Source of the DNA: Marsupella aquatica
Taxonomy: Eukaryota > Plantae > Marchantiophyta
Reading direction: 5' to 3'
NCBI GenBank assembly: GCA_973895155.1
Contig: OZ316896.1
Coordinates: forward strand, 10,551,525-10,615,524
Length of the DNA stretch: 64,000 nt
Positions 18,301 through 63,900 of the stretch are shown one piece after another. Within the stretch, counting starts at the first letter, position 1; each line of letters begins with the position of its first letter. A program made the translations under genes and the position numbers. Under the pieces are notes generated by a model. The model was not told the DNA's origin, made no database searches, and worked only from the letters and a program-made list of their open reading frames with translations.

Positions 18301-18353
18301 TTGACGGCCCCCTTCCTCTTCATCTCTGCTGCCGTGGAGGTTTCTCCTAGCAC
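15336..18353 (-). pseudogene. 5'-LTR copy of ORF-B with one nonsense change
   Basis: CAG>TAG at 16971-16973 splits it into 460- and 523-aa pieces. Confidence 0.85.
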
Positions 18354-36300: not shown

Positions 36301-36527
36301 CCTCAGGTTGGCGTGTAGTCTATCATAAACAAGCTAGGCAACGTCGGATGGAAGGATCTAAACTTGAGTTCCATTTACATTCTCATAGTGCCTTTGATCG
36401 TCGACGTGCACACCAAGTGTCTGTTGTTCATGATAGCAGGGACCTCATTCCTGTGACAAGGGTCGAGGCATTTGCTGAAGGGGATCAACTTATTGATCCA
36501 GATGCTGATAGTGAACCTGTGCCTTGA
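33353..36527 (+). pseudogene. CACTA Tnp2-family transposase (Transposase_21, DUF4218- and DUF4216-like regions), with introns, stops and frameshifts
   Basis: PLYPGS, IHACPDGHILF, RNVRLGLSLDG, YNLPPW, DYPA, HNIDVMHIEKNV, MKSHDYH, FFDVMTHLLVH, WLYPLERYM, EPFVFPSQVEQAFF. Confidence 0.93.
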
Positions 36528-43238: not shown

Positions 43239-43370
43239 TGGAACTTGACTTGGAGAACCCTGTGGTCTTCTGACCTTGCTTCTCGGGCTAAGGTTTTCAT
43301 TTGGCGGATCCTTGCTCAGGGACTTTTCTCTAGCTCTAGAGCCTTAAAGATAAAGAAATCCGACGGTACT

Positions 43371-45250
43371 TGTTAACCACTGAAGTTGGCTGGTTGCCAA
43401 CCCCTGGAGTTAACCCTCCTCCGGAACTCCTAACTCCTCCACTATCCTTCTGTGTATCAATTGAACATCATACGACTTCAATTGATCAAATTTCTCATTC
43501 ACTTGTCATCTACCATTTAACCTTTTTGTCAAACAATTAGTGATGACCTGTACGATTACTCGAGATAGCGATCTAACTATCTTAGTTTGATCCTCCGCCT
43601 GTTACTTGAATTGAATGTCAATTTCCCTTTCCCCTTTTAGTTAATGTTTCTTCAAAGAGGATTTCCAAACCCATTGTAGAAAGTTCCTCAGACATTGACT
43701 CTTCTTCTTCCTCTCTAATAATTCTCACCCAACTCTCAATCATGGCTTCACATTCATTCGGGGCATTATGTAGCCCAAATGGGATGTGTTCCAATTTAAA
43801 CGACCAATCAGAGGTAGCTAATTCCATGTTACCTACTCTGGGTCTCTCTCAGAATTTGCATCTTATCCATTACTCAACATTTCACTTTGGCAGGGATTCC
43901 TTTAACAATTTGTAATCTCAATCACTACATGCCATACGATTATGATATTTCCTTTTACAGGTTCCAACCAAATCCAAATGAATTCTCCATTGTCAAAATG
44001 TTAATATTTCCAGCCATCTCTTTTTCAGTATCAATTCCTTAGTTTTGATTTTACTGACATACAACAAATATAAGCTATGCAATCGAATGCTTCCTGAAGT
44101 CCTGCCAACAGCCTTGATTGCATCTTTCATTCTATGAACACATCAATTTCTTTACATGGTTTTTCTTCCATGGGCTTCCATCCACATCCAGGTCTAGCGA
44201 TCTGGCACTACCTCCTCCTGGGCTACCTCTCGAGCTTCCTGATCTTGAAAGTTTCCACAACAAAAGGCCCCTACCACTCCTACTTTGCTATCCTATATCT
44301 CTTCTACAGGCAGGTTTGTCTAACTCCTCTAACAATTAGCAGTTGTAACTGTCAAACTGCTTATTCAGTTTTTCTAACCGCTTTATTCCACTAAAGGCAC
44401 ATGTTAATCGTTACTTGTCATAGTAACTCTTAACTGTTACTTGCTACTGGATCATGCATCTCTTAACTGGTTGTCTTTTAGTTAATCATTCTTCGAAATG
44501 ATTAGTCGAAGTTTCATCCTCGGGCTCGGTGGCTCCAATGTTAATCGCTTGAATGGTGACTTCCACCGATTCTACTTGTGTTTCACCGACTCCTGCCTCT
44601 GATCGCCGGTATGTGGGGTGGATCCTCATTCTCTGGAATCCTAATATTTGTTGAGTTTTCTTGCTGCGGTTTTCTGCAATTCTCACTACCCAACACTCAT
44701 TCATTACACGGTGACAGTCTCTCTCTTGTGCACCAAGTTGCTTGTGAAATTCATGGTCGGGCACTCCAAACAATTGACATCCAGCTTCTTCCCACACTTG
44801 ATACACAACTATATTGATTTGCACAAAGAAATTGTACATGTGTTGGTCTGATCCAACCATTCTACAAAAATGATTGGTTCGCTTCCGCATCGACAACCCT
44901 ACATCTTGGTGTTCTCTGTTCAGTCTAGCTCTACGAGCACTTGGACCTAAAGCGCACATTTTCCCATCTTCCAAGGGAATATCACATCCTTCATAAACTA
45001 ACTCGCTACCATGCATGCCCCAAATCGCCTCAATGGTTACTCCAATCAGGCAGAGGACTCCAGATTGCTCCATCTTTGTAAAGTTGCTGCTATACCACAA
45101 AAACTGAACCTCGACTGGAAAAATGAAGTTCGTCTAGAGGTTTTTAGGGTTAACATAGTGGAGGCCCTAAAGTCCCGACTTCTACTTAACTATAACTCAA
45201 TGATTAGCTTAATTGCTACTAATCCTTACTTGCTAAAATTTAACATTTCA
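43371..45250 (-). mobile_element. 1880-bp TG..CA insertion (solo LTR or deleted LTR element)
   Basis: TSD GTACT/GTACC; the LINE zf-RVT (DGT-YLLCPGTIESIAHIFFLC) rejoins across it. Confidence 0.75.
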
Positions 45251-45887
45251 GTACCTATCTTCTCTGCCCTGGTACTATTGAATCTATCGCACACATCTTT
45301 TTCCTCTGCCGATATGCCTCCTGATGCTGGACCGAGATATGGAGCTGGATGCATGGGGCACTCTTTGGAGGATCTCAGACTCTACTGGATATTATCCTTT
45401 CCTGTCGCCGGCGAATACCCTTACTTTCACTTCGGATGTTCATTACTTATCAGGTTCTTTGGCACATCTGGCTGGCGCGAAATGCGCATGCTTTTGATCA
45501 TTCATGTGTTAGGTCTTTTGACCAGGTGGGTGTGATTACCAAGACCTTGGATCATCTCACCGCTGTGGCTTAAAATTAAATTAAAAAATGATGGTATTGG
45601 GTTCAAGTGTTAAGTACAACTTAGGTCTCATATGTTCACTAGCTATGACCATAATGTTTTCTGAAATTATATTTGGTGATGTATGTCATGCAGGGTCCCG
45701 TGACTTCTGCTTTGCTTACTCAACCTGTCCCTCCACGTCCTATGCCTTCTGCTTTGCATACTCAACCTGTTAAATTGCCATAAAAAGGTGGAAAAGAAAA
45801 GAAGAAAAAAAACCATCCAAGATGTCCAACTATTTTGCCATCTTGGTAGCCCTCATCTTGGTCATTGAGTGTTCAAAAAGGGAGGGG

Positions 45888-46694
45888 AATCGTACATGGG
45901 GTATCACAAAAACAGAATATGAATGGAATGCAGGTTGGAATGGATTGTGGCGCTCTGATCTGTCCTCCCGTGCTAAGACGTTTATTTGGAGGATATTGGC
46001 TTCAGGTCTCTTTACCGGGGTACGAGCTAGGCGCATTGACAAAGGAGAAGGGTACTGTAAACTGTGCAGTGGAATAGTAGAAACTATCCCCCATCTTTTC
46101 TCCCAATGTACTCATGCCAAGAGATGTTGGTCATTAGCTGCAGCGTGTTTCTCAGGTACCTTTACTGATTATGCGGATAGGATACTTGAGCTGTTGCTTC
46201 TCACTACTAAGGAAGACCCTGGCACAATTGCAAAGCTATTTATGTTCTATCAGATTCTATGGTCCTTATGGCAGAGTAGGAATGCGCACATGTTACAAGC
46301 CAATGGCTTTAGGACATTCAATCTTCGCTTTATTCTCTCAGAAGCTGTTGACCATGCATCGGCAGTGGGCCTGTGTGTGCCCCCGAGTAGACGACACACA
46401 CGATTGCTACGAGTGAAGGAGATACTTATACAGGAAAGAATATTTTGGTTGAATAGCCGACAGATCTGGATTACATCTAGATAGGACTTTCTCTGGCCAA
46501 TGGGGCTTGTTGGTCTTGAGATCCCTGTGTTTGAGATTGACAGCCTGGTCTCTGGGCTTTCATCACATGTTGTTGTTGCCGCACTCCAGGTGGGGTGGTT
46601 GATTGTGTGTTATGGGATCACTCTTTCTATTCTTCCTTGCCATGGGGTTTTCGTGGTCACTATCTAAAAAAATCATGAAAAAACATTTCCAAGG
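45888..46694 (+). mobile_element. 5'-truncated LINE (zf-RVT and 3' UTR)
   Basis: LWRSDLSSRAKTFIWR..CKLC..ETIPHLFSQC; 13-bp TSD AAAAAGGGAGGGG at 45875-45887 and 46695-46707. Confidence 0.88.
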
Positions 46695-47755
46695 AAAAAG
46701 GGAGGGGGATATCTTGGACATCCTTACTGAATGGACATTAGGGACTTCCCCTAATTGTCATCTTGGCTATCTCATTTTGGGCGGATGTTGTCTTAGGGTC
46801 AAAGGCTGGACGTCCTTAAAAAGGGATGTCACTTGTATTTGGGTCGGCCACCTTGTAACCGCCGTCTTTATGTCTAGGGTTGTCATGGAAGAGACGCCAT
46901 TGACGTCCTCACAAAAGGATGTCCAGACTGTCACTTGTTTTACCCCCTTTTTCTTCTAAGCCGTCCTTGAAACTCCATTCAATCTTGGGGATAGCTTAAT
47001 ACCACTTAAGAGGACCTTATAAATTCTAGAAATTTAAATGTTTTATAGTTTTTCATACTTTAACTCACTTTTAGGAATAATCACCATATATTGCAGTACT
47101 CATTGTGGTGATCATGAGACTACAGTTGAGAACATTTGTCTAATACAAAAGTTGAGAGCGTGCAACTCACCATCGTATTTAGAATAATAGAAAAATGGCT
47201 ACCTTAAATACTCTGTTTTGGTCACATATTGGGCACAATTTCACTCTTTATAGGGAGGTGTAGAACAAGGGTCAGTATGAATTTCCCGTTCTTGCATTGG
47301 CAATGTTATTGGCAACTTATTTAGACAGCTTCTGCAAGTACATATGCTTTTCAAAATTCAGGACACTTAGTTTCTCATCCAAAATGAGGTACAGTGAAGA
47401 TTTTTTGTTGATATGAAAGTCTTTGTGGCAGAATGAGGCAACAACTGGGCAGTGCAATGCCCAAAAACAAGAAGCCAACAGGCTATCATAACACATAGTC
47501 CACCTAATGGCCCAATGCTCCACAAAATTAAGCAAGTCATCAATTAACCGAGCTACCGTAATCCTCTCACTAAGGGCAAAAATCCAACAAGTAACTCTTC
47601 TCCAATCACTAAGTACCCTCATAGCACCTCCATAACACAACACATAGCCAAATTAAAGAAACATAGAGGCTAATTGGGACTATATCACCATCCATGTACT
47701 TCTCAAACTTAAGATGGATATAGTGATATAATTGTAATTATTAGTTTTACTAGTA

Positions 47756-48027
47756 CTTAGCATTCCATTTCCACCTAAGTTCCACGTGGAAGCTCTCCAA
47801 CTCCAGATCCAACTTTAGTGTACATGAAGCTACCACATGATCATCCTCATAAACTAGTATGCAAGCATCCGCTTTTCCTGTTCCTGGATCCTAAAAATGC
47901 TTGAGCATGCAAATTTTGCCTGACTGTGCATGCTTCTATCCCAAAAATTCTGCATCTCATATCTTAGACAATGAAGACTAAATTCAAATCAATCTATCTG
48001 ACTTTATCACTCCCACATTGAAAGTTT
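47756..48027. repeat. 272-bp direct repeat, copy 1 (copy 2 at 61110-61381)
   Basis: Near-identical from CTTAGCATTCCATTTCC to CACATTGAAAGTTT. Confidence 0.95.
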
Positions 48028-48311
48028 CCTTGGAATTGATTTTTTTAATAATAGTTTTAACACGATTTCGGACCGACCGAGAAGTGTGACACACTTCTCG
48101 TTTAGCCCGATTCCATTTTTTTTCTAAGGCAATGCAATCTCTGATAAAATTGGTGAAAAATTAAAAAACACCACTTTCCTCCACTGCATCGTCGCGGGAA
48201 TGTAGGGAGCGATACGTGCATCGGGTTTTATATTCGGTCTGTGAAAAAGTCCAAACTGCGAGTAACTTGGTCCGAACCACATAATCGAGGAACGACCACG
48301 CACTAACCCGA

Positions 48312-48398
48312 GTTAAGGGGGAAAGTAACCACGGTTAAGGGGAAAGTAACCATGGTTAAGGGGGAAAGTAACCATGGTTAGAGATTCCCCTATATAAA
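48312..48398 (+). promoter_or_regulatory. Three ~23-bp tandem repeats followed by a TATA box
   Basis: GTTAAGGGG(G)AAAGTAACCAYG x3, then TATATAAA at 48391. Confidence 0.55.
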
Positions 48399-48689
48399 GA
48401 GGAGCGGGCTGCCCATAAAACGTTTGTTTTTGCCGGAGCGAACATCACCTCACTCAGAGCGAATATCGAACTCCCATTGAGTCTTACATTCCTCCCAAGA
48501 GACTTGACTCTTTCTCCAGAGAACCCAATAAATTCATCGGAACTATCATTCCTGTTTGAGTATCATCTATGTAAGGTTAACAGATCATTTGGTGTCAATG
48601 TCCAGATCCGAGCGGACTGCGATAAATTTATCGCATTCTGCATTCCTATGTTGCATTCATTGGATCCAGAAACATTAAGGTGTTGACTT

Positions 48690-48900
48690 CATTCCGATAA
48701 ATATATCGGAGTCTTCATTCCTTTGATGGATAAAGGATTAATTGAGACTGCGATAAATTTATTGGAGTTTCCATTCCTGTGATTGATTGAATATTGTTTG
48801 AGACTCCGATACATTTATCGGAATTTCCATTCCTATGATTGATTTAATATTGTTTGAGACTCCGATAAATTTATCAGAGTTTCCATTCCTATGATTGATT
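48690..48900. repeat. 56-bp-period tandem array, each unit with the CGATAAATTTATCG palindrome
   Basis: Palindromes start at 48693, 48749, 48805 and 48861. Confidence 0.9.
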
Positions 48901-49640
48901 GAAGAACTGTGATGGATTGAGGGCTTAGGTGTGGGGGGAAGTCATATCTTCAATTTGAATGCAAAGTGCGATAAACTTATCGCACCCTCCTGTGAGACTC
49001 ATTTCCTGATGTTTTGTGTATAGACTCATCTTCCAATCTGATGTCGCAGTGCTGCCGGGTGAAGGAGGTACAATGGAAGGTTGATTGCACTCGGTGGATC
49101 AAAGGTATAGTGACAAATGGCTGTCTTAATTCAAAATCGTGTCAAACGTGCACGCCGGTTGTACAAGGAACTCGTGCAATGTAAAGTTCTCCCCATTGGT
49201 GTGGGAGCGTTGTGGATGGGTGGGACTGATCCCGGAGATAGGCAGAATCCTCTCCGGATTGAGTTCTACGGAATGAATGGTGTTGGAGTTCCAATTTGTT
49301 CGAGGTTGATGTTAACGGCGTGTCTACATTCTTTGGACTTTTCTTGTAACAATTGTTGTTGACGTCTTAACAACAAGTACCATAAATTGGCATACTTATG
49401 TTGTCAAATTTGGAACAAAGACCCGTGGGTCAACCTTTCACGCTAAGTGTTGCAACCTTCACACTGAGGCGCGTTTTGTAAGGACATATTTAATTAAACA
49501 AGTCCTACCCTTGTGCAGCGAATATAATACATCCCGAGTCCTAATCGTTAAACTGTCATGTAGGGTTGGTACTGTGGATATCTTTGGTTACACCTGGTGA
49601 TTGAAGGTACTTTTATTGGTGGTTTTGGTAGCTCTGCTTC

Positions 49641-50174
49641 ATGGCTGCGTCAAAGAACCTAATCGTTGCAAAGATGGCATCTGAATTGGCCCACAAGCGT
49701 AGGAAATATATTCAAGGAAAAGTGGCCGGTATGGAAAGCAGAATTTTGTTGAATGGACTTCCCCATCCTTTCGTTGAATCTCATATTTGGCCTCTCTTGG
49801 CATTGTCTTGCACACAAGATGAACACCTTGGCCATGACCTAAAACTTTTACCCGAAGAACGACTGACTCGAATGAGAACAATCATTTGTCTTGGAGCCAC
49901 CTCAAAGAAATGGAACCATCTTGTTGTTGGTACATGATTTTGGGCGTTATTGAAATACGTAATCCATGAGATCAAGGACATAAACGAAATGCTCGCAAGC
50001 ATTCCTAATGTCAACCTTCTCTCAAACCTACATATTGCTAGGGTCTTTCGAGAGGAAACTCATTTCCTCCCTCCCATAGATATGCTTGGGTGCTTTTCGT
50101 ATGACCAATTAGATGCGTTTCTTAGAGTTTGGATGAATCTTGGAGAAAGCGGGAAGCGGACAATTCTTGCATGA
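49641..50174 (+). pseudogene. F-box-like small protein, one in-frame TGA
   Basis: LLNGLPHPFVESHIWPLL..IICLGATSKKWNHLV..FW resembles an F-box with an insertion; ORFs 49641 and 49950 are in the same frame. Confidence 0.45.
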
Positions 50175-50520
50175 CATGGACAAGTCTGAGTGGATTAGGC
50201 ATTGCTGCGCACATCCGATAAATTTATCGCGCTCCTCATTCCTCTAGTCGATTTAGGAGTCAATTGTTTTTTTGTGCTCTAAGGTTTGCTCGAGAAGAGC
50301 TTGTAAAGAAACACTTTGAATGTATATGACCCTGCCTCGTCTGACTTTGGGTTGTGTGGTCTAGAGTGTAGTTTTTTGCGCCTCTACGGACGATTACCTG
50401 ACAAGTGCATTTTCTTCACAGCCCGTTATACAAGGTACTTTAAAGTTGAATGAAACTTGTAGAATTGTAATGAGTATGTTCTCCAAAATGTATTCCTGAT
50501 TTCTATTCGCTGATCAGGCC

Positions 50521-51243
50521 ATGCTCGAGCGACGCATTTTTGTACCCTTCGTGGATCCTCCAGAATGGGGGAATGGCGCCATTATGGACCAGCTAAGGAG
50601 GCTGGATGAATCACTAATTTTAAAGATTTGCCATCTGGTAGCAAAACCATTTTATAATAACGCATATCACTTCTACGTAGACCAGGTAGGGGGAGAAATT
50701 TATATCCGGTGGGATAGATATGTTGCATTTTCTAGAAGAATTATCCTGCTCTTTCTTAAAACCGGTGCAGTAAAATGTTTTATACTGCACCGTTGTCATG
50801 TTGTGAAGGGCAATCGTGCTTATGAACCAGAATTCTATGCTCACAATAGACGTAGAGCATTCGATGAGATTCAGGATGTGATTGACCAGCTGGACAATCC
50901 TCTTGCCACCGAGTTTTTGATTGACACTGGTGGGAAGTTATATTCATACAGGACTTGTCAACTCCCCCCTCGGCCTCTTTGTGCGTTATTTAGGTTAGTT
51001 TATGTATCTTATTTATGGACAAATGTCCTTGACAATGGTGAGATGTGTCAGTGTTGCACAAATGCCTGTTGTGACGTTCCGTCACGCCGCTGTTCAGTAG
51101 CTGTAGTTAATCCTGAGACCTGTGCCACAGATTTTCATTGGTTGTGGGCCTATGATCATAGGATCACTCATATACCCCAATGGTCCAAGAAGCTAATCTC
51201 TCGCTGCGCTGTAGCGCGGTTTGATCTTGGGTGGGATGATTGA
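50521..51243 (+). CDS. Unknown 240-aa ORF/exon with Cys-rich C-terminus
   Basis: Uninterrupted ORF, CQCCTNACC motif, lies between palindrome clusters. Confidence 0.5.
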   Translation: MLERRIFVPFVDPPEWGNGAIMDQLRRLDESLILKICHLVAKPFYNNAYHFYVDQVGGEIYIRWDRYVAFSRRIILLFLKTGAVKCFILHRCHVVKGNRAYEPEFYAHNRRRAFDEIQDVIDQLDNPLATEFLIDTGGKLYSYRTCQLPPRPLCALFRLVYVSYLWTNVLDNGEMCQCCTNACCDVPSRRCSVAVVNPETCATDFHWLWAYDHRITHIPQWSKKLISRCAVARFDLGWDD

Positions 51244-51455
51244 TTAGGCACATTATCACATGTACACTCGGCCGTCAATTTAAAGAAGGCTCACTTTTTG
51301 TTCGGACCACTTTTGCGATAATTTTATCGGTCGTCTTCATTGCGGGTCTTTTGTCCTTATGTGTTATGAGATTTTGTGTCCACATGTGCTGTGACATTGG
51401 AGGCGATAATTTTATCACACTTTGCATTGGAATTTGTTTATTTGCAGACTTTTCC

Positions 51456-54400
51456 ATGGCTGCTAGTGGAAAGAGTGGATCTGCCAAGGCTGAAAGGCCT
51501 TAGTTTATTGACAATGTGCGGACGCAAGGGTTTCACATTTGTCATTGTTACTCTAGAAAACTTTGATGAGAAATTGATTGACTGTTATCCAGAAGATCCC
51601 CTTGTCGCCGAAGTTCGGACAGCAAGAGAGATGAATGTTATGGGTTCGGCTTGGGTGTGCCAGTATGTCCAAGATTGTGATGCGATCATGCTACCAAAGG
51701 TGAACGCAGAGTACAAGAGACTTGTGGGTGAAGAGTTCAAACCCGTCCAGAAAATTGTTTTCAAGAAACCTGGTTCAAGCGGCAACGGTGGTTCTTATGC
51801 CGATAAAAGGTCGGGCGGTAAAGAACCATTGCAAACCTCTACATATATTGACGTGGATGAACGCACAACTTCTGGTCGGGTTTCGGGAAGTGGAAGAGGG
51901 AAAGGGAGAGGTAGCAACAGGGGAGATGCCACGGGACCTTCTGATGGCGGGAAGAGGAGCCAGGAAACTGGCGGTAGTGGGAGGGGACGGGGCAACCATC
52001 AAGGACGTGCTTCAGAAGGACCGTCCGTTAATCCAAGCAAAAGTAAAGGATCCAAGGGATCTGGGCCATCTGGTTCTGGACTTAGCACAAAGAGGAAGAA
52101 GACTGGGTGGAGTGAAACGGTGGCTCCAGAAGTAGATAGAGCTCCATCTAATACATCAATTCCTTCAGTTCTCGTCGAGCTTCCTGCAATGCCATTGGTA
52201 AGTATAACGTCGTTTAGTATTGTTAAACAAATAAGGAATTCGATAAAAATCTTGCTGTTGATTTCCTTAATTGAATTCGCACATCATTTAGTTGTGTTGA
52301 ACAAATGTGGACTCCGATAAAAATCTCGCAGTCTCTTTCCTCAATTGAATTTGACACGCTTTTGTAGACAAATGCGGACTCCGTTAAAAATATCGCAGAT
52401 TCTTCGCTTAATTGAATCCGCAACGCTTTTGTAGGCTGATCAGGAGGAGGAGATGGCTCTTTCGATGTATGAGACTGACGCCATCAAAGCAGAGCTCAGT
52501 CTATTGATGCAACGAAGGGTGCACAGGACAACTGTCCTTCTGCATGTCGACAATCTGATATTTGATGAGGAGGGGGATATGTCAACTTTGATTAGACCAG
52601 TGGATAGATTGCATGTAAAGAATATCAAGATACTTCTCATGAAAAACCCCACGAACTTCAGTCCCCCGTTCGTGCTGTGTGTGGATTCGAAGGATTGTCC
52701 CACACCCGCAGATTGGGACATCTTGAAGTCCAGGGTATGGAAGTATAGAATTATTGGAGGGAACCATGGTGCTCGGGCAAAGTCCGAGTTGTATAAAATG
52801 TACAGCAAGCAAATTTATGGCGAGCTGGAAGCTTGGGTTTACACTGGGCTTACAAGATCCAAGGTCTGAAAGTTGGGCTTCCATCATAATTATGACCAGG
52901 AGTATCGGAAGAACATGACTCACATTGACCAAGTTCGTGCTTGTCATAATATTTACCTAGAAATGGGTGTGGGCTCGACTAAAGATGTTCGCGAAGCATG
53001 TTGTCAAGAATGCATGATGGATTACACACCAGGCGTTCGTGACTCCATGGCCAAACACAACCCAGCTTTCCAAATTGCTTTCCGAACAAGTGAAATTTGG
53101 GATCTTCAGGAGAAAATTTTCCAGATGTGGGAGAAGGGTGTTGTCTTAGGACAACCCAAAAAAATTGTGGCAATGACAAACGCAAAGGGAAAGGTAAACC
53201 CTTTGACGGTAAGGGAGATTAAAATGAATAAACTTGCTGGGGACCTCAACTTAAATTCATTTCGAGGTCTACAAGGACTGGCAAATAAGGAGCACGTCAA
53301 GCGTATCTTGAATAGGGTTATCGGGAAGGTGATCACTTTGGATCAAATGCACAAGGAAGGTGAGAAGCTGAAAAAGCTTGCCAAGGTGAAGAAACTATTT
53401 TTGCAGATATCTGGTCAGCTAGATTGGGCAACGTGCAGAGAAATGTTTCCCACTGAAACAGATGTCTCGGTCCTTGGCATATGGGCGGAGAAATTGAGTG
53501 ACGCGGTAAGCATTTCTCTGACCGCGAGATTTTTATCGGCTTTAGCATTCCATTGTAGGTTTCTAAGCGGTTGTATTTATCGGCTATCGTGACCCATCGT
53601 GAGATTTTTATCGGGTTTTGGATTCATCTCACGTTATTCTAGCTGTAATGTGTGTGACATTTTTACAGCTGAAGATTAGTTCAAAAAGAAAAAACAAAGT
53701 GGTTCCGGCTGTTACTTATAATTCTGTGGGGGAGGTTATTGTTCCCTCGGCTGACATCCCGTATGTGTTTAAGAATTTTGTGCTTGCTGCAATTGATAAG
53801 TACAACTGGCTCTGGTCCTTAGGCCAGGGCACAGCAGAAGCGTTGGAACAAACATGGAAAAATGCTGATGGGGATACGTTCCCCTACTATCTCCATGTTG
53901 GTAATGTTCGAATTTTGGATTCTTTTGTTGAGCCAAGGGCTTACACCCTTGCGGTCGCGGATATTCCGTATGGTTTTAATGCTCCTGGTTTGGAGTTTGA
54001 TGAAGTGTCCTTCACACAAAAGGACGTTTTAGATATGGTGACAAGTTTTTCAAAGATGATGACCACTAAGCAGTGGAGGTTTGTTGTGATCCATTCACTA
54101 CAACAAACTCATATGGTGATGTCTGCACTTGAGAGTGTATGCAGCTGTGGGGTCAAGGTTGGAATCTGGGAGAAGACTAATGTTCATGAGCGTCCCGCTG
54201 GCGCTCGATTGGCGTGGGGTTTTGAGAACTGGTCGATGGGTTTCTATAGCGAGGAAGGCATTCGGAACATGAACATGTACAATTTTCAACCGGATGAGTC
54301 TCGCATCAATATCATCAAGGTTCCATGTGTAACCAAGAAATCTGTTGATCCATTGGGATGTGTTGTGAACCCGTATCAGAAGCCTGTTGGTTTGGGGGCT

Positions 54401-54781
54401 TGGTTTGTTTCCCATTTCTCTGAGAAAGAGGATTGGGTTATAGATCTTTGTTGTGGAACCGGATCAATGTTAGTTGCTACGCTCCTCAATTCTCGGCAGG
54501 GTTGTGCTGTCGATAAGAGTTCTACCCAGATTGATTTTGTGAAATCCCGGATCATGACTCTAGAGTTAAACTGGAATCTATTTGAAGAATCCCAGATTGA
54601 AGGGCACGGCGTCAAAGGTCATGAGATTCAACCACCAATTGCAGGCCAATTGGGTGTTCTCAAGACATCAACTTACGCAATTGAAGTCGTGAAGGAGACT
54701 GAAGAGGAACAAGAAGAAACTGAGGAAGAGCCTCCCAGAACACCAAATGAGGATGATCTCAACGCCATGTTATTAGATTAG
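51456..54781 (+). pseudogene. Three-exon gene (~970 aa): G/S/K-rich linker, ParB/Srx-like domain, beta-class N6-adenine/N4-cytosine DNA methyltransferase
   Basis: IRPVD..YRIIGGNHGARA (ParB-like). VADIPYG precedes NPYQKP..VIDLCCGTGS..AVD (motif IV before motif I). Phase-0 GT-AG introns 52198-52434 and 53506-53668 join the frames. Lesions: TAG 51501, a nearby frameshift, TGA 52867. Confidence 0.85.
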
Positions 54782-55145
54782 TTAGTCAGATGTGCTAGTT
54801 GGAATTTCTTGGCATCACAGTCAATGAGAAATAGAGTTGTCGATAAATTTATCGGATTCTGTATTCCATCAAGGAGAACCGTTGTAACCTTTCTTCATGC
54901 GATAAATTTATCGGACTTTGCATTCCACGGTCTAGCTATCCGACGCTCTAGCAATTCCACTCCCTCCGCTCTAGCTTTTGCACTCCCTTGTTGTCGATAA
55001 TCTTATCGGACTTTGCAATCCACGCTCTAGCTGGTCTGTCATTACAATAATTTCAAACAAAAAAATCATTATAGCTTTGGAGAACAACATAGTCCCAGAT
55101 GTTCACGACTGCGACCATCCTCATGGGAACGATAACGATTATAAC

Positions 55146-57383
55146 TTAAACCTCCACTTCCATCACTGAGCAAGTTCTTGCCCAAAATGGTTCCAAGATG
55201 GACTCCTTGCCATCTCCCAATTCAAGATTCTTCATGGTAGAGGCACACATGACCCACACACTTTGTGAAGCCTTGAGTACCTCTTCTTGACTGATTTTTG
55301 CCACTTCTTGTGACTTGTCAAACTTTTCTCCCATCAATGGTTCCCATCTTCCCAAGTCCAATAGCTTAGCTTCTAACATCTTTGGTTCAGAAACTACCTC
55401 CTTTGAAGACTCTGGCATCTGTGGTCCAAAAACTTCATCATTTGAAAACCCTAGCATCTGTGGTCTAGGGATCTTCTCCTTTGAAGACCCTGGCATCTGT
55501 GGTCCAGGGATCTCCTCCTTTGAAGACCCTAGCATCTATGGTCCAGGGATCTTCTCAACATTCACTTGATACACTTGACACTCTGTATTAGCTCTTGAAA
55601 ATGAACCTTCTCCATCCTCTCCAACTTCAGAATAAAACTCTACTCCCAATGCATGAGGTCCTTCTTTATAAAATCTTTTTCGCTTCACCTTTGCAAGTAA
55701 AGCATCTTGAGCTTTGGAGTTCATGCAAGCAAAAAACTCCTCATTGGTGACTCCATTCACTGTGGCTTTCCAAAACTTATCAGCAACTTGGTCATACTCT
55801 ATGTGTTGCTCCACATCCCTTCCAAGTATCCAACCAGGTCCTTTCTTTTCTACTTTCTCCTTTTTTACTACTTCCAACTCCTTTGAAGGGGTTGAAGTAG
55901 ACTCTTTTGGTGTGCTTGCTCTGTCCTCAAATCGAACACTCCTTCTCATTGGCACATCAGATGATGGTCTAGGAGTAGAAGGTCCAGAATCCACTTTCTG
56001 TTTTCCTTTAGCACGTTCTTCCAAAGGCTCCACAGACTTCCTCTTCTCCTCCTCCATAGAATCCCATAGAGACCCTACCTCTACAGTAAAAGCAAAGATC
56101 AAAACAGGATCATTTCAACCTGATTTTCTCCTTACAAACTCTGTCAGCCTTTTCTTCTCTGTCTCTGAGGATGCTGCTGATGAAGGATCCCGAAACACAG
56201 TGTAGACATCTGCTTCATGCTCACCTTTGTCCCCATAAGTTGCAGCAATGGCTGAGTTATGATGTTCAACCATTCTCTTCTCCACTAGTACCTTCATGCC
56301 ACCTTTGTTGGCATTGACTGGAAGAAGTTCACCCGAATCATGATAGGCAAGCTTTCTTATGCCATCATGCTCAACAAACTTAACCATTCTCTTCTTTAGA
56401 GCAACAGACAGCTCAACACACTCTCTTCTAGAGTGCTCTTTGCTATCACACCAAATACAATTCCAGCTTCTTGGTCCTCCGATAGAACTTCCTGCTCCTC
56501 CACTACCTCTTGATGGTGGTCTCAATGTGTTGCCTCCAATTTGTCCCAAAGCTTGGGTGGCAAGAATGGTAAGATTCTTTATGAGTTCAGACAACTCATC
56601 CATCTTGTCCACACTCTTCTCACCCCTACCGGTTGTTGACTCCATCTTCTCCACTCTCCTCATAGAAGCCATAGGTGCTACTGTATCCAGAACACCTTCA
56701 TGACTGAGTTTCTTCCTTTTGTGTTTTTGACTGACTCTTAGCACAGCAGTCTCAATCTCCTCCCAAGTTGGCTGATTAGCCCCATGACTCGGGTTCAGTA
56801 GTTCAAGAGCAAGCTCTAACTCATCTTGAAGCTTCTCATCAGCAGCCCGGATGAGTAGAGTAGCCTTCTGGACCTTGATAACTTCAGATCCTATCTCAGG
56901 AAGTTGATTGAACTTCTTGACAAACTCCCTCATCAACTCTTGAGGTCCCAACTTCTTAATTCTGTCAGTCACCCAATCAAGGAAAGATGCCCGGGTGATC
57001 CTATTTGGATCTTCCAGCTTAAATTCTTCTTTCATTCTCAGCTCAAAAATATTCCATGCCTTTTCTCTATTAGCTCCCTCTGTCAAGGAAATAACAATTT
57101 CCTTGAGTTCAGGTTTCGCCAAAGATACAAACTCCTTGACTGCTATCTCACCATCAATCTTGTGAATTGTAGCCTCTGTCCAATATCCCTTGAGATACCT
57201 TGTCACATACCTCCGATCAAATTCTCCTTGCTTAGTAAGAACTGAGTGCAAGTACTTTGTGGTCCTTCCAAGCAACTCCTTCTTCTTGTTCTCCTCCATC
57301 TCCTTCTCCTTCATTCCATGTAAGTATGCAGCAACCAAAGATGAAAACCTCTCCATGTCAATTGGATTAATCTCAGTTCCCAT
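55146..57383 (-). pseudogene. gag: Gag with CCHC knuckle, two in-frame stops
   Basis: CIWCDSKEHSRREC; three same-frame ORFs; 39-bp coding tandem repeat x4 at ~55398-55556. Confidence 0.75.
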
Positions 57384-58394
57384 GATTGCAATTCTTCCCT
57401 CTTGACTAATGATATATTAAAAACTCAAAGACTCATAGTTCCAAAAGTCATATCACTCTTCTTCAACTAGAACTTAGACTTGCACAAGCTAACTCCAAAA
57501 TCCAGCGGTTCCCCAGTATGGTCACCACTTATATCCGGGTGACCGTGTTTTCTGGTAAGAACATGTTGGCTCTTATGAAGTCAACCTTGCATGCCCATAA
57601 GTTCTACACTAAAACCAAAATGATAACTCTTGTAAAAAGGGTGGTGGGTATTAAGAAAGGTTCAGGTGAAACTAATATACTATTAAATCCTACTTCACCA
57701 TACTTGCGGATCAACACATCTCAAAAAATAATTTTTCTACGACATACAATCCTAATATCTCCAAGAGAAAATGAGATAGGAATGTCATTTGGACTCCTAT
57801 TTAGATCCATGACTTCAATAAAGGACAAAGATAATGCACTCCCACTCCTCTCGATAAGACACTACTGGGTATACTATTGGCTCATTAGAACTCATAACAA
57901 CAGCTGCAAATTGAGCTCCAAAGTGATAAGTTAAATACTGCCTCATGGATGGCTTGTCTAAAAGATGGACTCTAACCAAAAATGGATTACAAAGGGGAAG
58001 ACTAGGGATATCTCTCCCTCCTGGATTCATAATGATTCTCTTGTTCCTTTGCTATCCGGGCCAAAGGATGCTCCACCCCTAAGTTCCCAAAGAGACCTTG
58101 TTCCTTAAGGTCCCATCTATAAGTCTACCACTCATTCCTTTGCTATCCGGGCCAAAGGATGCCCCACTACTATGTACATAAGGCAAAGAATAGAAGAGAA
58201 AGATGAGAGAAGAAAAGAGGATTGTTTCGACGCGGAAATTATCAAAATGTGGGAATGAGGAGAAAGTGCCCCTCACCACTTTATTTATATTGAATCCAAG
58301 AGGGCATGGATTACGCCCAAACACTTGGATGAAAGCCAAGTGGCACACATCCAACGTAGGAATGTGTGCTAGTACTATTGCAATCAAAACAAAT

Positions 58395-58730
58395 AATGCA
58401 TGCAAGTAAAACAACTAATGCATGCACCTAAAATAATTTGTGCATGCATGCACCTTGTGGCTTGCACATTTGCTCATCTTGCATGCGCATAAAATAACTA
58501 ATGTATGCAAATAAAACAATTTGCATGCATCTAAAACAATTTGTGCATGCACCTTGTGACTTGCACATTTGCTCACCTTGCATGCACTAATGCATGCAAA
58601 TAAAACAATTTGCTCACCTTGCATGCACATAAAATGACTATTGCATGCAAATAAAACAATTTGCACATGCATCCAAACAATTTGTGCATGCATCTTGTGG
58701 TTTGCATAGTTGCTTACCTTGCATGCACAT
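58395..58730. repeat. TGCATGCA-rich tandem repeats within the LTR
   Basis: Repeated ATGCATGCAAATAAAACAATTTG and TTGCTCACCTTGCATGCAC units. Confidence 0.85.
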
Positions 58731-59704
58731 ACATAATAGTCAAATTATTTAATTATCTCGTAATAATATATAAAGCTAACCTATATACTTACTTATATAC
58801 TTAGTGGTAATGATTTCATCATGAATAATTGAATTATCACGACACTGTCGCCCTAAACGACAAAATAACAGAGAAAGGTATATTTCTTGGATTTATAATT
58901 TCATTCTTACACGTGCAAAATTATATAGTTTTGAATTGAAGCGATAAATTTATCTGATGTTGGTATTGCAAAAGGTGTTTCTTTCATATGGAAGTTGCAA
59001 TTTTGAAATTGAAGCGATAAATTTATCTGATGTTGGTATTGCAAAAAGTGTTTTCTTCATATGGATAGTTGCAATTTTGAAATTTAACCGATGAACCGAA
59101 GCATCTTAGTATTGTCAACAAGTATTTTTGCCGTCCGTAGTTTTCGCGATAATTTTATCGCACTGCGCATTGCTGTTGAAACAATGGCATGTTGACTATG
59201 GTCACTTTGGAGGTAACTATGGTCAATTGCGGAGGTAACTACAAGGTAAGTCTGACAAACCGTGCAGTAATTTCTTATCGACTATGATATAAAATAGTTA
59301 CGGTAAATAACCAAAAACTGAGAAAACTGAGATTGAGTCGGAACTTTCATTGTTGAAATCCGGAGTCCGATACAATTATCGGACTTTGCTCGAAAAGTGG
59401 ATATGGATTTCTAGATAAGACCTTTCATATATCTTTGGAGAGCGTGAATATGAGGTTCAGGCAAAAGTTTTTCGTATCTAATTTTTCCTTGATAAATTGA
59501 ATGTTTGTGAGCATTAATTTCAGTGGTTTGGAACATTCCTGAATTTCCTGATTAAATCCGAACTCCGATACGGATTACATTATTTCCCCAAAAACCTATT
59601 TTTGATGAAAAAAACCACTGATTTTGCGAGATTCGGCGTAAAATGAAAACATACTTCTTGTTTGCGGAAATAGTTCTCGTTCGGTCGGAAATTGTATTTT
59701 TTAA

Positions 59705-61109
59705 CCCGGAAAAAACCCCACGGGCAGGGCAAACAAGCCACACGGCAAAACAAGACAACCCCCCCTTGGGGGGGAAACACAAGGGGTACAAAAGAAGCCG
59801 TCACCAAGACAAACCAAAACCAGCAAGTGAGGAGAGAATAGCAGTAGCAAATGAGAAGAGGGGGTCTCATGTCAGGACCACAGCTAAGACCTAATCACGC
59901 ATTCTAATCCAATTATGGGCACAGGGTCATCCACCAGTGGAAATACAGCCCCTGCCATCACTAAGCCAGAGCCTACGTAAACTGTCAATCCTATCTTTTG
60001 CCCGGCACAACCGGGTATTCTTTCTACCAGGGGGTGAGCATCTGCTCACAGCATTCAAGCACTGAGCAGCCTCAGAAAGCACTAGGCCCATATCAAATGT
60101 ACGTCTACCACCTGCACTGAACATATGGGAGTTCCTGCCTAGCCACAACCTCCATAAAATCTATTGAAAGACAAATAGTTTGGCAATATGCTTAGGGTCC
60201 CTCCCATAAGCAGAGTCCAACAAAGTTAGCAGCCCCTGGCCGATTGGTAAGCCCTGCTCACGTAAGAAGCAGTGGCAGAGTCCCCAACACCTCACAGCAA
60301 ATGCACACCCAAAGAACATGTGGGGGATGGTCTCTAAGGTACCGCTACACACCTTGCAATCACCATTGCTCACACCAATTCTAAGTGCCCTAGCACCCGT
60401 GAATAGACCCCCAACAATAATTCTTCAGATGAATGTCTTGCCCCTGGTTGGCAGATCAGAGCCCCACAGTCTAGACCACCCCAAGTTCCATCTCAATTCA
60501 GGTCGAGAAATGGACCAGATCCGGTTAAGGTGACCGTGATTTGAGCTTTTGGGTCGTAGAAATTCATAAACACGACAATTATCCACCCTGAAATCCTTCA
60601 ACTTCTCTATTTTGTCAGCCCACCTCCACTGTTTGGCATATAGGTAAAAGTCAGTCCTACATTCATTGGTGTTCCACAGGTATTCTAGGAATGAGTGTGC
60701 AAGTGCTCAGTAGTGAAACCTCGCAAGCTGTGCCATTTCATTGGGAGGTCCTTCCAGGCTCCATCCTCCAAAGACCATCCGTCCCCAATAGATCTCATTC
60801 CTAGTCTACCACAAATGGTAGCAACCCCAACAATGGCCTCATTCAAAAGGGAGTGAAATCCTGCAAGGCAATGTAAGGTGTCATAGATGCTCCATCGCGC
60901 CGGAACCCCAAGCCTGCCAGGCTCAAAAGACAGGTGTGCTCTGAGCATCGTCCAACTCCTCCATAGTCCACTCGTATATGGAAGGCCACTATATGACCTC
61001 AGTGTACACAGTAATAGCTGGTCTTGAAAGGAATATTGGTTTTGTCTAATCACTTTGTAGTTCATCCATCCCATCAGAGCTAGATTTGCAGCAAGCATTC
61101 TAGACCATT
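59705..61109 (-). mobile_element. 5'-truncated LINE (C-terminal ORF2, zf-RVT, 3' UTR); its extreme 3' end lies at 48028-48060
   Basis: GDCKVCSGTLETIPHMFFGC; homologous to the other LINEs in the window. Confidence 0.85.
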
Positions 61110-61381
61110 CTTAGCATTCCATTTCCACCTAAGTTCCACATGGAAGCTCTCCAACTCCAGATCCAACTTTAGTGTACATGAAGCTACCACATGATCATCC
61201 TCATAAACTAGCATGCAAGCATCCGCTTTTCCTGTTCCTAGATCCTAAAAATGCTTGAGCATGCAAATTTTGCCTGACTGTGCATGTTTCTATCCCAAAA
61301 ATTCTGCATCTCATATCTTAGATAATGAAGACTAAATTCAAATCAATCTATCTGATTTTATCACTCCCACATTGAAAGTTT
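61110..61381. repeat. 272-bp direct repeat, copy 2
   Basis: Matches 47756-48027. Confidence 0.95.
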
Positions 61382-63900
61382 GATATATGATTTCCAGATT
61401 GCCCTTAAAATCTAGCAATAGCTTTCATAGGATGCATAAAATGTTGACCAAAATGTGCAAGGCTTTTGTCAGGCAATTCTACCAGCATAGCATTCCTTCC
61501 CCAATGTCCAGCACTTTGGAGTCCTCCTACATCCATAATTGCAGTTGAACAAATTATGCAGAATTGTTTGCCACTATGAAGTTGCATGTACAGGCCCACT
61601 TACTTGTTGAGAAACTTGAGCACAAGAAGACAAGGCACTACATCAACAAGTATGTGCGCAATTGTATGACTCAAACTTTAGGATTAAAAAACAACCTTGA
61701 ATATTGTACAAGCTTCTATCCTGCAAATATCCCTATGCTTTGCCATTTGCAGTGTTGAAACTTGCAAGTACCAACTTTGTGTGCATGATGTCTGCATTAG
61801 GATATGGAGGAATGTACAGATGCTTGGAACAAGTAGATGCAATTGGCAGAGAGACTGCATAGCGTTGGACACTAAACTTAATATGACATATTGTACTACC
61901 AATGTACTTCTCATTAGTGATAAACTTGTATAATCTGTAAGTTTCAACAGGAGAAAATTGACCCACCGCTTCTTCAAAGAAAGTCTTCAATGTAGACGGG
62001 AAATCGGAATATCTAACCCTTGCCAAGAACTCTACACTTGTAATTCCTTGTAAAAAATGCTCTCATTGCCTTCACTGTGACATCTTTAAATGTACTTTCC
62101 AATACAATCTTCTTTCAATTTCACTCATGGAGCGAGAAAGCATAACAATTTTCACCAAAGAATAAAAACCCTCATGAAGTAATGCACCAACTATGGCACA
62201 AGCCCCAAATAATGTGTCATACACCATGTCTGCATATAGTGATGTCACTGCCATTTGAAATCCTTCATTTGACACGTTGGGGTCCAGACTTATAATACTC
62301 AGGCATTATCTCCTCCATGCTCTCAACTAGACTCCTCCTTCAGTCTTGAGGACCAGTAATAAGGGATTGCATTAAATTGTACCTGCAATAATATGTGTCA
62401 TGTCTCCTATCACATAGGCTTGCTGAACCCAAATGATTCCAATTCATTTGAGTTCATATTCTCAAAAAAATCCCCCAAATCAAGAAGGTACATAACCCAC
62501 CTAAAGTGTGTTCTCCTCGGATTGTAAACATGCCAATGAATGAACTCATTTCCTTTCATAGATGGTATATTAAACTAATAGTGTTTAGAGTTCTGAAAAA
62601 AATAATAACTTAGTAGAGAATATGCAAAATCATGTACAAACAATCAAAAATTGGGAATGTTAAGTACCACATAGGTCAAAATCCTCAAAAATCCTCTGTA
62701 TATATTGATGACTTTTGCTGCAACACTTGCATGTGAATTTCATCCTTTGATGGACAAATGCCCATTGCATGAGCAATAGTTGCCATTGTCATTGGACGTT
62801 GTACTTGTTGTTTCTTTAAAACAAGAAGAAACCTGAGTTGACCAACCACACGCACCTACAAAACCAGTCATGGAAAAAGTTACTTATATTGTTCAACATT
62901 ATGACACAATGCACTCTGTCTATTAAAAATTTTCTAGTCTCATACTTCAAATTGGTAATAGTAATTAAGTGATTCAGGGTTATGTAAATCATTATGGAAG
63001 GGGGCCATCAATGAAAATAGGTGCTAGTCTCACATCTTTTTTGGATATCTCTGTAAAAAAAAATTAGATGTAAGGTGATGAAGTCCGAAAGTACCCTGCT
63101 TGAAAACCTCATGGAACTCCTGCAATTGAGTCATGATGTGACATGAACAAATGTAATTTCATACTTAATCATTGAGTAAATAATGTCAAAAATCCATCAT
63201 TGAGCTAATGAACTTCAAAGATTTGCACTAAGACAACTTACTGAAGAACCATTGAATAAACTTTTCCAAGCCCCAATAAGAAATCGAGTTGCGACACCAC
63301 CGGCATCCAGTGTCAAATTCATCCAATGTTGCTTCACCATCATGCATCACATAGGTCAGTTTTGCTGAGAAGTCAGCAAATATTTGTTGTTTCTTCATGG
63401 CATTTTGACACATCTTTCGAATCACAGACAATTCATCTCCATCGTAGAACTACACATACCATGACAAAAGTGTACAATTAGTTTACCTCAATCAATCATT
63501 ACTTTGTGAAAACCATTCATTGTCAACAAAACCAACAAAAGTAAAGCTATATAGGTCTATCCATGTATAATAGCCTGAACGCGTATCTAAAATGTTACCT
63601 GAATCTATATACATGTGGTACTTGCCGTTGGAATCGTCAAAATTGAAATAGTCCATTGTCAGAGATTTGATGGACTCTCAACGACACAATGCTTTGTAAT
63701 TTTTGTCTCTTTTTTGGCCTTTATGTACAAATCATCACAGTTTATTTGCAGTGGTGATGAAGGGCATTTTCCAATCCAGTCAATATATTCTTCTCATAGT
63801 GAGATGATCTGGGCTTCTGAAAATTTGCCCTTGGCAAATGAGTTTGGGCAATCCCTATCATAAGCAATCCAAGAATTTGTTGAATTATTACATATCAACA
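61382..63900 (-). pseudogene. Degenerate multi-exon coding-like remnant of unknown type, probably continuing at ~47300-48027
   Basis: Short minus-strand ORFs bounded by plausible splice signals; no motif recognised. Confidence 0.25.

Follow-up and report, generated by a model that had tools for sequence, protein, structure and literature searches.

Why would a plant transposon carry an intron-containing gene that joins a ParB-like domain to a DNA methyltransferase of bacterial type? The question is raised by a gene at positions 51456-54781 of a 64,000-nucleotide stretch of Marsupella aquatica DNA (hereafter the window), for which a sequence-only reading had proposed three exons, two phase-0 introns and the motifs IIGGNH, DIPY, YQKP and DLCCGTG in the order of beta-class enzymes. 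Our answer, to which we assign a probability of roughly 0.55, is that this is a decayed accessory gene of the transposon, whose intact protein would bind palindromes in its own element and write 6mA, so self-marking the element copies; this reading draws on sequence, structure models and analogy. At the sequence level, the proposed gene structure was confirmed, with GT-AG ends on both introns, an ATG at 51456 and a stop codon at 54779-54781 (Table 1). IIGGNH lies in exon 2 (52750-52767; GGNH at 52756-52767), and exon 3, an open frame of 370 codons, contains DIPY (53960-53971), YQKP (54374-54385) and DLCCGTG (54443-54463), placing motif IV before motif I. The codon position and phase of intron 2 are identical in all five related loci that span the site (L001-L005; intron lengths about 210-490 nt), while candidate phase-0 splice sites, both donor and acceptor, occur in L001 and L002 at places comparable to intron 1. 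Exon 1 matches its counterparts in the same two loci (tblastn, E 5e-8 and 1e-9, respectively), in both cases from 51493-51499 onward only.

Table 1. Features of the transposon and its ParB-methyltransferase gene (window coordinates).
Feature	Position	Strand	Details
TIR DNA transposon, Sola1-like	48059-59698		about 11.6 kb including nested insert; non-autonomous copy
Left target-site duplication, TTTT, 4 bp	48055-48058		sequence
Right target-site duplication, TTTT, 4 bp	59699-59702		sequence; empty-site form
Left TIR, 25 bp, begins AA	48059-48083	+	21/25 positions match reverse complement of right end
Right TIR	59674-59698	-	pairs with left TIR
Degenerate ORF pieces, cargo gene	49114-50171	+	ORF listing; no Pfam match at E<0.1
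247-codon open frame	50500-51243	+	ORF listing; no Pfam match
Exon 1	51456-52197	+	small uncharacterised domain, then Gly/Ser/Arg-rich linker; probable deletion near 51497 breaks frame
Intron 1	52198-52434	+	237 nt, phase 0, GTAAGT...TTTTGTAG; predicted
Exon 2	52435-53505	+	predicted ParB/Srx-fold N-domain, then helical ParB-like DNA-binding region; premature TGA inside
Intron 2	53506-53668	+	163 nt, phase 0, GTAAGC...TTTTTACAG; predicted
Exon 3	53669-54781	+	predicted beta-class N6/N4 amino-methyltransferase domain and acidic tail
Nested insert with gag-like frame	55080-58844	-	left limit approximate; 3 runs show loose ends before 58845
Seven palindromes, left subterminal region	48210-48982		pattern match
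Palindrome between two upstream ORF regions	50216-50229		pattern match
Two palindromes just 5' of start codon	51316-51417		pattern match
Three palindromes in intron 1	52241, 52315, 52382		pattern match
Two palindromes in intron 2	53525, 53600		pattern match
Three palindromes 3' of stop codon	54841-55008		pattern match
Four palindromes, right subterminal region	58942-59381		pattern match

The gene had been described as carrying three lesions, of which the disabled state stands and the count does not. Four contigs of run X1 diverge from the window directly after 51496, and the matches to exon 1 of L001 and L002 begin around this place, so that the TAG at 51501 and the exon 1 frame change probably stem from a single deletion near 51497. 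Together with a premature TGA in exon 2 (52867-52869), where homologues have Arg, this probably makes two disabling events; three separate lesions were rejected on these grounds. As it reads, the window copy of the gene is dead and cannot make protein, and its element would rely on other copies.

Exon 2 has nine homologues with 51-78% identity. Its fold was assessed on a model of the homologue P0045, which is 78% identical to exon 2, and not on the window copy (pLDDT 58, pTM 0.42). Foldseek returned B. subtilis ParB as the best match (6sdk, E 3.6e-5), with top rows all from the ParB family (ParB, PadC, Noc, KorB), and VIA aligned the model with PadC (Z 8.1, rmsd 3.5, 100 residues) and C. crescentus ParB (Z 7.5, rmsd 2.9, 99 residues), the best Z being close to the level that this tool rates as common. 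On this low-confidence model, P0045 has a ParB/Srx N-domain fold followed by a helical, putatively DNA-binding region. The earlier assignment of a ParB-like domain is thus upheld by the fold of a close homologue but not by profile, as Pfam ParBc had no match in 11 exon-2 sequences; a PDB sequence search with the ParB part yielded Spo0J at E 0.087 only. The nucleotide-binding motif of the ParB family is GxxR. At this place, the exon-2 family has GG[NGT]H and next to it one of G, S and T, with Arg in none of the 21 aligned rows, which makes a CTP clamp doubtful; we therefore class exon 2 as ParB-fold, and not as a ParB CTPase.

That the gene is carried by a transposon, as previously suggested, is borne out by the ends of the element, its 4-bp duplication and its many other insertion sites. 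At the left end, contigs with unrelated flanks, which represent these other sites, stop in all four runs (6, 14, 2 and 15 contigs; flank agreement 0.40-0.75), and an empty-site joint (48051->59699) with a single TTTT was found in three of the four, its short side comprising only 27 letters. The TIRs and the 4-bp target-site duplication are both features of Sola1 elements. Sola1 prefers AWWT targets (PMC3845634), from which the single TTTT site departs, although one site gives no preference. In the related elements L003 (E 3e-7) and L006 (E 9e-50), a DUF7869 gene lies convergent to the ParB-methyltransferase gene, and L004 retains its C-terminal end. We take DUF7869 to be the Sola1 transposase. 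No transposase was detected in the window element, where the nested insert occupies the place of this gene and has no match to the L006 transposase; the insert's frame at 56115-57416 is gag-like by eye, with nothing significant in Pfam. Given the lack of a transposase in this copy and the provisional link between DUF7869 and Sola1, we label the element only as Sola1-like. A CACTA identity was rejected, as the element has no CACTA ends. Separately, CACTA-type domains at 23-36 kb of the window belong to another element.

The DNA of the element contains a candidate binding site, which the sequence-only reading had overlooked, as it had the ends of the element. The 14-bp palindrome CGA[TG]A-N4-T[AC]TCG has 22 matches compared to 2.2 expected, a number reached in none of 100 shuffles. 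All 22 lie within the element and none in coding-like frames, which cover about 60% of its length (binomial P 1.7e-9); they are confined to its non-coding DNA, including both introns of the ParB-methyltransferase gene, and are absent from the nested insert. The introns and spacers of L002-L006 contain the same 14-bp core, even though the synonymous sites of these genes are saturated, and L001 has a variant with the same spacing, so that the candidate site differs between element families: L001, L002-L006 and the window. The pattern had no match in L007-L010 (1.5-2.3 kb), which are more distantly related. TIR elements often have transposase sites in their subterminal regions, and a less probable alternative is that the palindromes serve the transposase, with the ParB-methyltransferase being an untargeted or differently targeted passenger. 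Half of the palindromes (11/22) do cluster in the two subterminal regions, at both ends, and in L006 a palindrome adjoins the DUF7869 gene. However, the other 11 are located deep inside, near the start codon of the ParB-methyltransferase gene, within its two introns and beyond its stop codon, intronic palindromes recur in L001-L005, and, as far as the accessible account of them goes, the Plavaka elements of Bostrychia, whose transposase is unrelated, also have inverted-repeat arrays by a ParB gene.

For exon 3, which has 25 homologues with 52-71% identity, an AF2 model (pLDDT 69.5) folds as a permuted Rossmann-type, beta-class amino-DNA-methyltransferase, in agreement with the original assignment: CcrM was matched at E 5e-13 by Foldseek and at Z 19.8 by VIA (rmsd 3.6, 217 residues). 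CcrM, M.BceJIV, M.MboIIA, M1.HpyAVI and N4CMT all scored between Z 18.7 and 19.8, while METTL3/MTA1 reached at most 12.9. An RNA or METTL3-type enzyme was rejected on this basis. In Pfam, PF01555 matches the window exon at 19.1 bits (E 0.0013), under the gathering cut-off of 26.7, which the relatives P0059 (65.7) and P0092 (54.5) clear; a PDB sequence search with the methyltransferase gave no match under E 0.03.

Motif IV reads DIPY in 17 and DVPY in three of 20 close rows, keeping the D, the second P and the Y of (D/N/S)PP(Y/F/W), with the first P replaced. DIPY as a decay mutation of the window copy was rejected, the departure being family-wide. In a wider set of 138 rows, motif IV is Asp-first in 129, including 13 with DPPY, and Ser-first in only four, of which one has SPPY. 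According to the accessible text of one study, DPPY versus SPPY distinguishes N6A from N4C enzymes (PMC8885841), and the prevalence of Asp-first motifs leads us to lean, without proof, to 6mA as the predicted product; the initial view that the target base could not be predicted was too pessimistic. We see a smaller chance, though one to be reckoned with, that the protein binds the palindromes and makes no 6mA, but either 4mC or, as a silent methyltransferase, nothing at all, serving instead as a scaffold or reader to keep host methylation off the element. Such a role would suit the CG at the start of each palindrome half-site, a target of host 5mC, as well as the non-canonical motif IV, which in deeper relatives varies further (DAPY, DFPY, DLPY, DSNY), and the 4mC enzymes N4CMT and PvuII have the same fold (Z 17.6-18.7). 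Against it, the Asp, second Pro and Tyr are kept in all 20 close rows, as is the SAM-binding motif (with A for D in one row), Ser-first motifs are rare, and the deeper fused relatives P0092, P0097 and P0156 have the canonical DPPY.

The fusion is found well beyond the window. The exon-2 profile and a methyltransferase occur on one polypeptide in 20 of the best 150 profile hits (E<1e-4, among 201 proteins), and the nine of these 20 for which a look-up gave species names come from Chara braunii (4), Adiantum nelumboides (3), Riccia sorocarpa (1) and Ginkgo (1). As fused gene models exist in all four of these genera, the family is, by its sequence distribution, old in streptophytes. Synonymous sites are saturated in 14 of 15 gene pairs (pS 0.75-0.89) at pN values of 0.05-0.25, and the single unsaturated pair has a dN/dS of 0.06, indicating selection on the protein. 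In the literature that we searched, most of it open-access, no account of such a family from land plants came up.

The proposal of an old horizontal acquisition agrees with the bacterial-type fold and the age of the family; no close prokaryotic relative turned up in phage records, IMG/VR or GTDB genomes. A quick midpoint-rooted methyltransferase tree of 113 rows, each with 150 or more aligned positions, comprising at most one multi-domain bacterial-type row and neither DN4MT1 nor N4CMT, placed the window within an unnamed clade of 41 rows (support 100) and gives no donor or order of events. Phage records matched the methyltransferase weakly (at best 26% identity over 65% of the domain) and the ParB part not at all, and no viral contig in IMG/VR qualified among 57 candidate stretches for the methyltransferase alignment and seven for P0092. 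Searching GTDB genomes with the fused P0092, which finds close relatives only, gave 0 of 18, and longer fused homologues were absent among 2,617 candidates, a weak piece of evidence, whereas the profile search did recover fused proteins. The genes closest to this family are themselves eukaryotic, so that the acquisition lies too far back to be placed. The family had also been considered a source pool for domesticated plant amino-methyltransferases such as Marchantia DN4MT1, a notion in keeping with their common beta class and with the relative in the liverwort Riccia. We consider it very improbable: DN4MT1 has TSPPY, found in no row among the relatives, groups with 4mC enzymes of prokaryotes and lacks extra domains, while the Riccia protein is a ParB fusion; nor is N4CMT structurally any nearer to the exon 3 model than CcrM or M.BceJIV.

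In the self-marking scheme that we favour, the exons would be spliced into one ParB-methyltransferase polypeptide, whose helical ParB domain would bind the 14-bp palindrome as a dimer, like ParB on parS, and thus bring the methyltransferase in cis to the DNA of the element. There, its Asp-type motif IV would methylate adenine on or near the palindromes, and the element may gain a self-mark that aids its expression or transposition, or that weakens host 5mC silencing. The weakest step of the scheme would be a nucleotide-gated sliding of the ParB part. A broader version, which we advance only tentatively, is that land-plant transposons have kept, since the streptophyte algae, an address-and-write system of bacterial style, in which every element family has a parS-like palindrome of its own, where a fused ParB-methyltransferase loads and deposits 6mA on the element. 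If true, this would provide an enzymatic source, confined to particular transposons, for the 6mA whose presence in plant genomes is debated, an example of ParB-type DNA addressing in eukaryotes, and a transposon-owned pathway of sequence-targeted adenine methylation in plant nuclei, possibly opposing host 5mC silencing. If false, the gene would still represent a widespread, unnamed streptophyte family mostly missed by standard domain scans.

Among known systems, the bacterial beta-class methyltransferases (CcrM, M.BceJIV, M.MboIIA, M.RsrI, M.PvuII; PF01555) share fold and motif order with exon 3, from which they differ by an identity of about 10-19%, and by its D[IV]PY motif, spliceosomal introns and N-terminal ParB-like module. 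In ParB, Noc, KorB and PadC, an N-domain of the fold predicted for exon 2 likewise precedes a helical DNA-binding region, and the palindromes of the element are similar in length to their parS-type sites, but here GGNH stands for GxxR, the domain is fused to an enzyme and no ParA partner is seen. N4CMT of bdelloid rotifers and DN4MT1 of Marchantia are likewise eukaryotic, bacterial-type beta-class amino-methyltransferases. Both are host genes for 4mC, the former with SPPY, fused to a chromodomain and silencing transposons, the latter stand-alone, in contrast to a transposon cargo with an Asp-first motif IV. The 'Chlorophyte-type Dam' (Iyer, Zhang and Aravind 2016, PMC4738411) also combines a eukaryotic adenine methyltransferase with a ParB-derived module; in the accessible portion of that work it belongs to Group 2, is not permuted and has the HTH only, as opposed to a permuted (beta) enzyme with a whole ParB N-domain fold, and none of the Group 1 clades described there matches the present family.

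Both the ParB-methyltransferase architecture and the idea of self-methylation are, judging by the accessible parts of two reports, already published, for Plavaka elements of Bostrychia and for Sola1-1_Ec32 of Ectocarpus, a precedent that the sequence-only reading did not take into account. The red-algal accessory genes PAG2 and PAG3, from Bostrychia among others (bioRxiv 10.1101/2025.02.11.637652), comprise a transposon-borne PF01555 methylase and a ParB-like domain, divided between separate MTase-SET and ParB-2OG-oxygenase genes of an EnSpm/Plavaka element, where we find one ParB-methyltransferase gene; their inverted-repeat arrays, proposed as ParB binding sites, lie beside the ParB gene, whereas our palindromes are dispersed, introns included. 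Sola1-1_Ec32 (PMC12477816) is a giant element with AA...TT termini, a 4-bp duplication and a different target bias noted for the Ectocarpus family, whose accessory gene encodes a ParB-like and N4/N6 DNA methyltransferase protein of about 1,100 residues on the strand opposite the transposase, a convergent layout like that with DUF7869 in L003, L004 and L006. Compared by description and not by sequence, it differs in its brown-algal rather than streptophyte host and its TIR of 282 bp versus 25 bp, and the accessible text mentions neither palindromes nor a motif-IV variant. Its authors propose that the accessory protein binds and modifies its own transposon. Self-marking by transposon ParB-methylases has thus been put forward for algae, with no exact site specified as far as these texts go; the palindrome supplies a candidate site at single-base resolution that differs from one element family to the next, making the idea directly testable.

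Re-reading the window sequence in three-frame translation returned the gene structure that the sequence-only reading had proposed, with its start codon, its two phase-0 introns and, in order along the gene, the motifs IIGGNH, DIPY, YQKP and DLCCGTG. A scan of metagenome contigs yielded 49 pattern matches that resolved into ten related loci, five of which (L001-L005) span the exon 2-3 boundary; in each of them a GT donor follows one shared codon, an AG acceptor precedes one shared Phe codon, and the intervening intron measures about 210-490 nt. Because these positions agree, there is comparative support for intron 2 being a real intron conserved across related loci. Exon 1 (window 51500-51820; L001 393-1100; L002 640-1200) encodes a conserved domain of ~170 residues, for which Pfam returned no match, followed by a low-complexity linker.

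Predicted parts of the ParB-MTase gene and distribution of the palindromes
Feature	Window position	Strand	Detail	Palindromes
Start codon	51456	+	window sequence, three-frame translation	
Intron 1	52198-52434	+	GT-AG, phase 0	3
Exon 2	52435-53505	+	357 codons	
Intron 2	53506-53668	+	GT-AG, phase 0	2
Exon 3	53669-54781	+	370 codons, frame open	
Left end region				7
Between upstream ORFs				1
Before start codon				2
After stop				3
Right end region				4

Three separate lesions had been counted in this copy. The TGA in exon 2 (52867-52869), where homologues have Arg, stands, but the apparent stop and frameshift of exon 1 are better read as a single deletion event, since four contigs of the public run X1 diverge from the window directly after 51496 and exon 1 of L001 and L002 becomes alignable only from 51493-51499 onward, with about 75 further conserved codons upstream in both loci. 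The window copy departs from the other rows at five columns where those rows are conserved to 90% or more, and in three of the five a lone C>T or G>A step accounts for the change. Decay of a methylated copy would leave such a pattern, but the numbers are too low for it to carry much weight.

Among 1,632 candidates, 25 proved homologous to exon 3, at 52-71% identity, and the match of the exon to Pfam PF01555 falls below the cut-off (E 0.0013). The AF2 model of exon 3 (pLDDT 69.5, pTM 0.69) superimposes on CcrM (E 5e-13; Z 19.8, rmsd 3.6, 217 residues), with M.BceJIV and M.MboIIA level to within one unit of Z, then M1.HpyAVI and rotifer N4CMT at Z 18.7, and METTL3/MTA1 at 12.9 or less, in agreement with the beta-class identity assigned from sequence. 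Look-alikes in the ESM Atlas are phage N6_N4 methylase clusters (score 0.96-0.97), but the best phage protein by alignment shares 26% identity over 65% of the domain. In six coding sequences compared, synonymous sites were saturated in 14 of 15 pairs (pN 0.11-0.25), and the single unsaturated pair gave a dN/dS of 0.06. The unusual motif IV belongs to the family, as all 20 aligned rows carry DIPY (17) or DVPY (3). The sequence-only reading had held that DIPY leaves the target base unpredictable; in a wider profile set, which includes redundant cluster members, motif IV is Asp-first in 129 and Ser-first in 4 of the 138 rows with the full motif, and under the DPPY versus SPPY rule, as stated in the available part of PMC8885841, the family leans towards adenine and thus 6mA. 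A protein that binds its sites but makes 4mC, or nothing, is an improbable alternative, to be judged against this Asp-first majority on the one side and the Z score of N4CMT on the other.

For exon 2 we found nine homologues (51-78% identity, among 1,203 candidates). Pfam ParBc recognised neither it nor them, and the ParB domain claimed earlier is supported by the predicted fold: a model of P0045, the closest intact homologue, folded in place of the window copy (pLDDT 58, pTM 0.42), retrieved B. subtilis ParB (E 3.6e-5), PadC, KorB and M. xanthus ParB as its best Foldseek rows and aligned with PadC at Z 8.1 (rmsd 3.5, 100 residues). The alignments to ParB, Noc and KorB extend into their DNA-binding domains. 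A ParB fold for exon 2 is a reasonable reading, though the homologue model is weak. Where ParB has its GxxR loop, the 21 aligned rows show GG[NGT]H and then G, S or T, while an Arg upstream of it is conserved. For P0045, the ESM Atlas placed fungal DUF3723 clusters (PF12520, Ascomycota) at the top (score 0.94-0.95); DUF3723, which Starship elements commonly carry as an accessory gene, may be related to the ParB fold.

Judged by sequence, the fusion is widespread. Among the best 150 matches of a profile search over 1.84 billion representatives, the exon-2 profile hit the same polypeptide as the MTase in 20 (E<1e-4); nine of 20 proteins looked up from these 150 carried species names, all of them streptophytes. 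These nine, all predicted gene models, are GBG86584, GBG66685, GBG87022 and GBG90283 of Chara braunii, three of Adiantum nelumboides, KAL3696720 of Riccia sorocarpa and Gb_37443 of Ginkgo. GBG86584 (P0055) contains two tandem ParB-MTase units in one 1,825-aa model, possibly two merged neighbouring copies. Five proteins of 690-995 aa from short ENA contigs (P0092, P0095, P0097, P0156, P0158) likewise contain the two domains within a single called frame, and three of the five have canonical DPPY; P0092 aligned with 271 columns of the exon-2 profile (probability 96.8). Viral contigs yielded no relative of the MTase family or of P0092, and the prokaryote genomes searched with P0092 yielded none either. 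In a quick MTase tree, the window copy fell inside a 41-row clade (support 100), nested in a larger group with the named plant proteins (support 90). On this distribution the host is probably a land plant; a moss would be a guess, prompted by the listing of Sola1 for Physcomitrella in PMC9033089.

That the gene is carried by a transposable element, as first proposed, is borne out by the element ends, a 25-bp inverted repeat (21/25 matching) with TTTT on both sides. Comparing contigs of four public runs with window 43000-62500, we found a joint skipping 48052-59698 in three of the four, its short side of only 27 letters being weak alone, and contigs with unrelated flanks that end at 48059 in all four (6, 14, 2 and 15 contigs), which marks this position as a repeated mobile end. 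L003, L004 and L006 carry a convergent DUF7869 gene where the window copy has a nested insert of ~3.8 kb; searching the window with the L006 transposase brought up no match (E 0.29 at best), and the window copy is non-autonomous. Short repeats of the GGTAAC/TAACC type near both ends (48304-48380 and 59200-59250) are possibly the true transposase sites. Further cargo genes lie on the plus strand at 49114-50171 and 50500-51243, one fragmented and the other a 247-codon open frame, neither with a Pfam match and with a palindrome between them. A 272-bp direct repeat, 98% identical, flanks the element outside its ends (47756-48027 and 61110-61381). Elsewhere in the window, NSD-type PHD and BRCT coding frames beside the CACTA-type transposase-associated domains PF13963, DUF4218 and DUF4216 (21114-22438 and 23316-36527) probably mark a further DNA transposon whose cargo is of the chromatin-reader type and into which another element has inserted at ~24.9-29.1 kb. 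An LTR-retrotransposon-like element (3551-19000) has gag-like and pol-like frames at 8179-14348, identified by eye, and a pair of nearly identical repeats, several kilobases long and spaced by 10,864 bp, both of which contain a long coiled-coil frame.

Searched with the pattern CGA[TG]A-N4-T[AC]TCG, which was derived from repeats in the element and related loci and allowed up to one mismatch, the window has 22 palindromes where 2.2 would be expected, a number that none of the shuffles attained. All fall within 48210-59381, none in coding-like frames (P 1.7e-9) and none in the nested insert. L002 (18 matches), L003 (6), L004 (7), L005 (5) and L006 (4) share this core, though their central bases are different; two of the L002 matches lie inside exon 3 and look like chance, and L007-L010 have none. 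L001-L007 all come from a single metagenome assembly and are thus not independent hosts, though different element families. L001 (62-4864) lacks the window pattern and has the variant CGATC-N4-CATCG at unchanged spacing, a possible change of specificity; its motif IV is DVPY. ATTC follows eight bases downstream of 11 of the 22 window copies and 9 of the 11 exact L002 copies. As the simplest explanation we propose, with a probability of about 0.55, that the ParB region would recognise the palindrome as a dimer and so bring the methyltransferase onto the element's own DNA, where it would write 6mA, each functional step being inferred. That the palindromes serve the transposase instead, one of the two main alternatives, seems unlikely to us; sites in both end regions would suit it, those in the two introns less so. 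The existence in land plants of such a transposon-owned, palindrome-addressed 6mA pathway is a tentative proposition. A parallel may lie in the VANC anti-silencing proteins, whose targets are short motifs within the non-coding DNA of the elements that encode them.

The suggestion that such elements were a source pool for DN4MT1 and N4CMT found no link, both differing from the window protein in motif and architecture as far as the available descriptions go, and the accessible part of Iyer et al. 2016 (PMC4738411) does not list the window clade among those described. The excerpts of PMC12477816 describe Sola1-1_Ec32 of Ectocarpus, a 21.5-kb element with AACCG-CGGTT ends and a 4-bp duplication, which encodes a 1,104-aa ParB-like and N4/N6 methyltransferase protein opposite a transposase closest to that of Physcomitrella Sola1, and for which modification of the element by its own protein was proposed; a table in PMC9033089 lists Sola1 for Physcomitrella. 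In Bostrychia Plavaka elements, inverted-repeat arrays adjoin a ParB-domain gene, according to the portion consulted of bioRxiv 10.1101/2025.02.11.637652. Measured against these partial accounts, the window locus belongs to one type of system with Sola1-1_Ec32 and the Plavaka cargo, to which it adds a streptophyte range, a conserved intron, a motif of the Asp type and a candidate site that is defined and specific to the element family.
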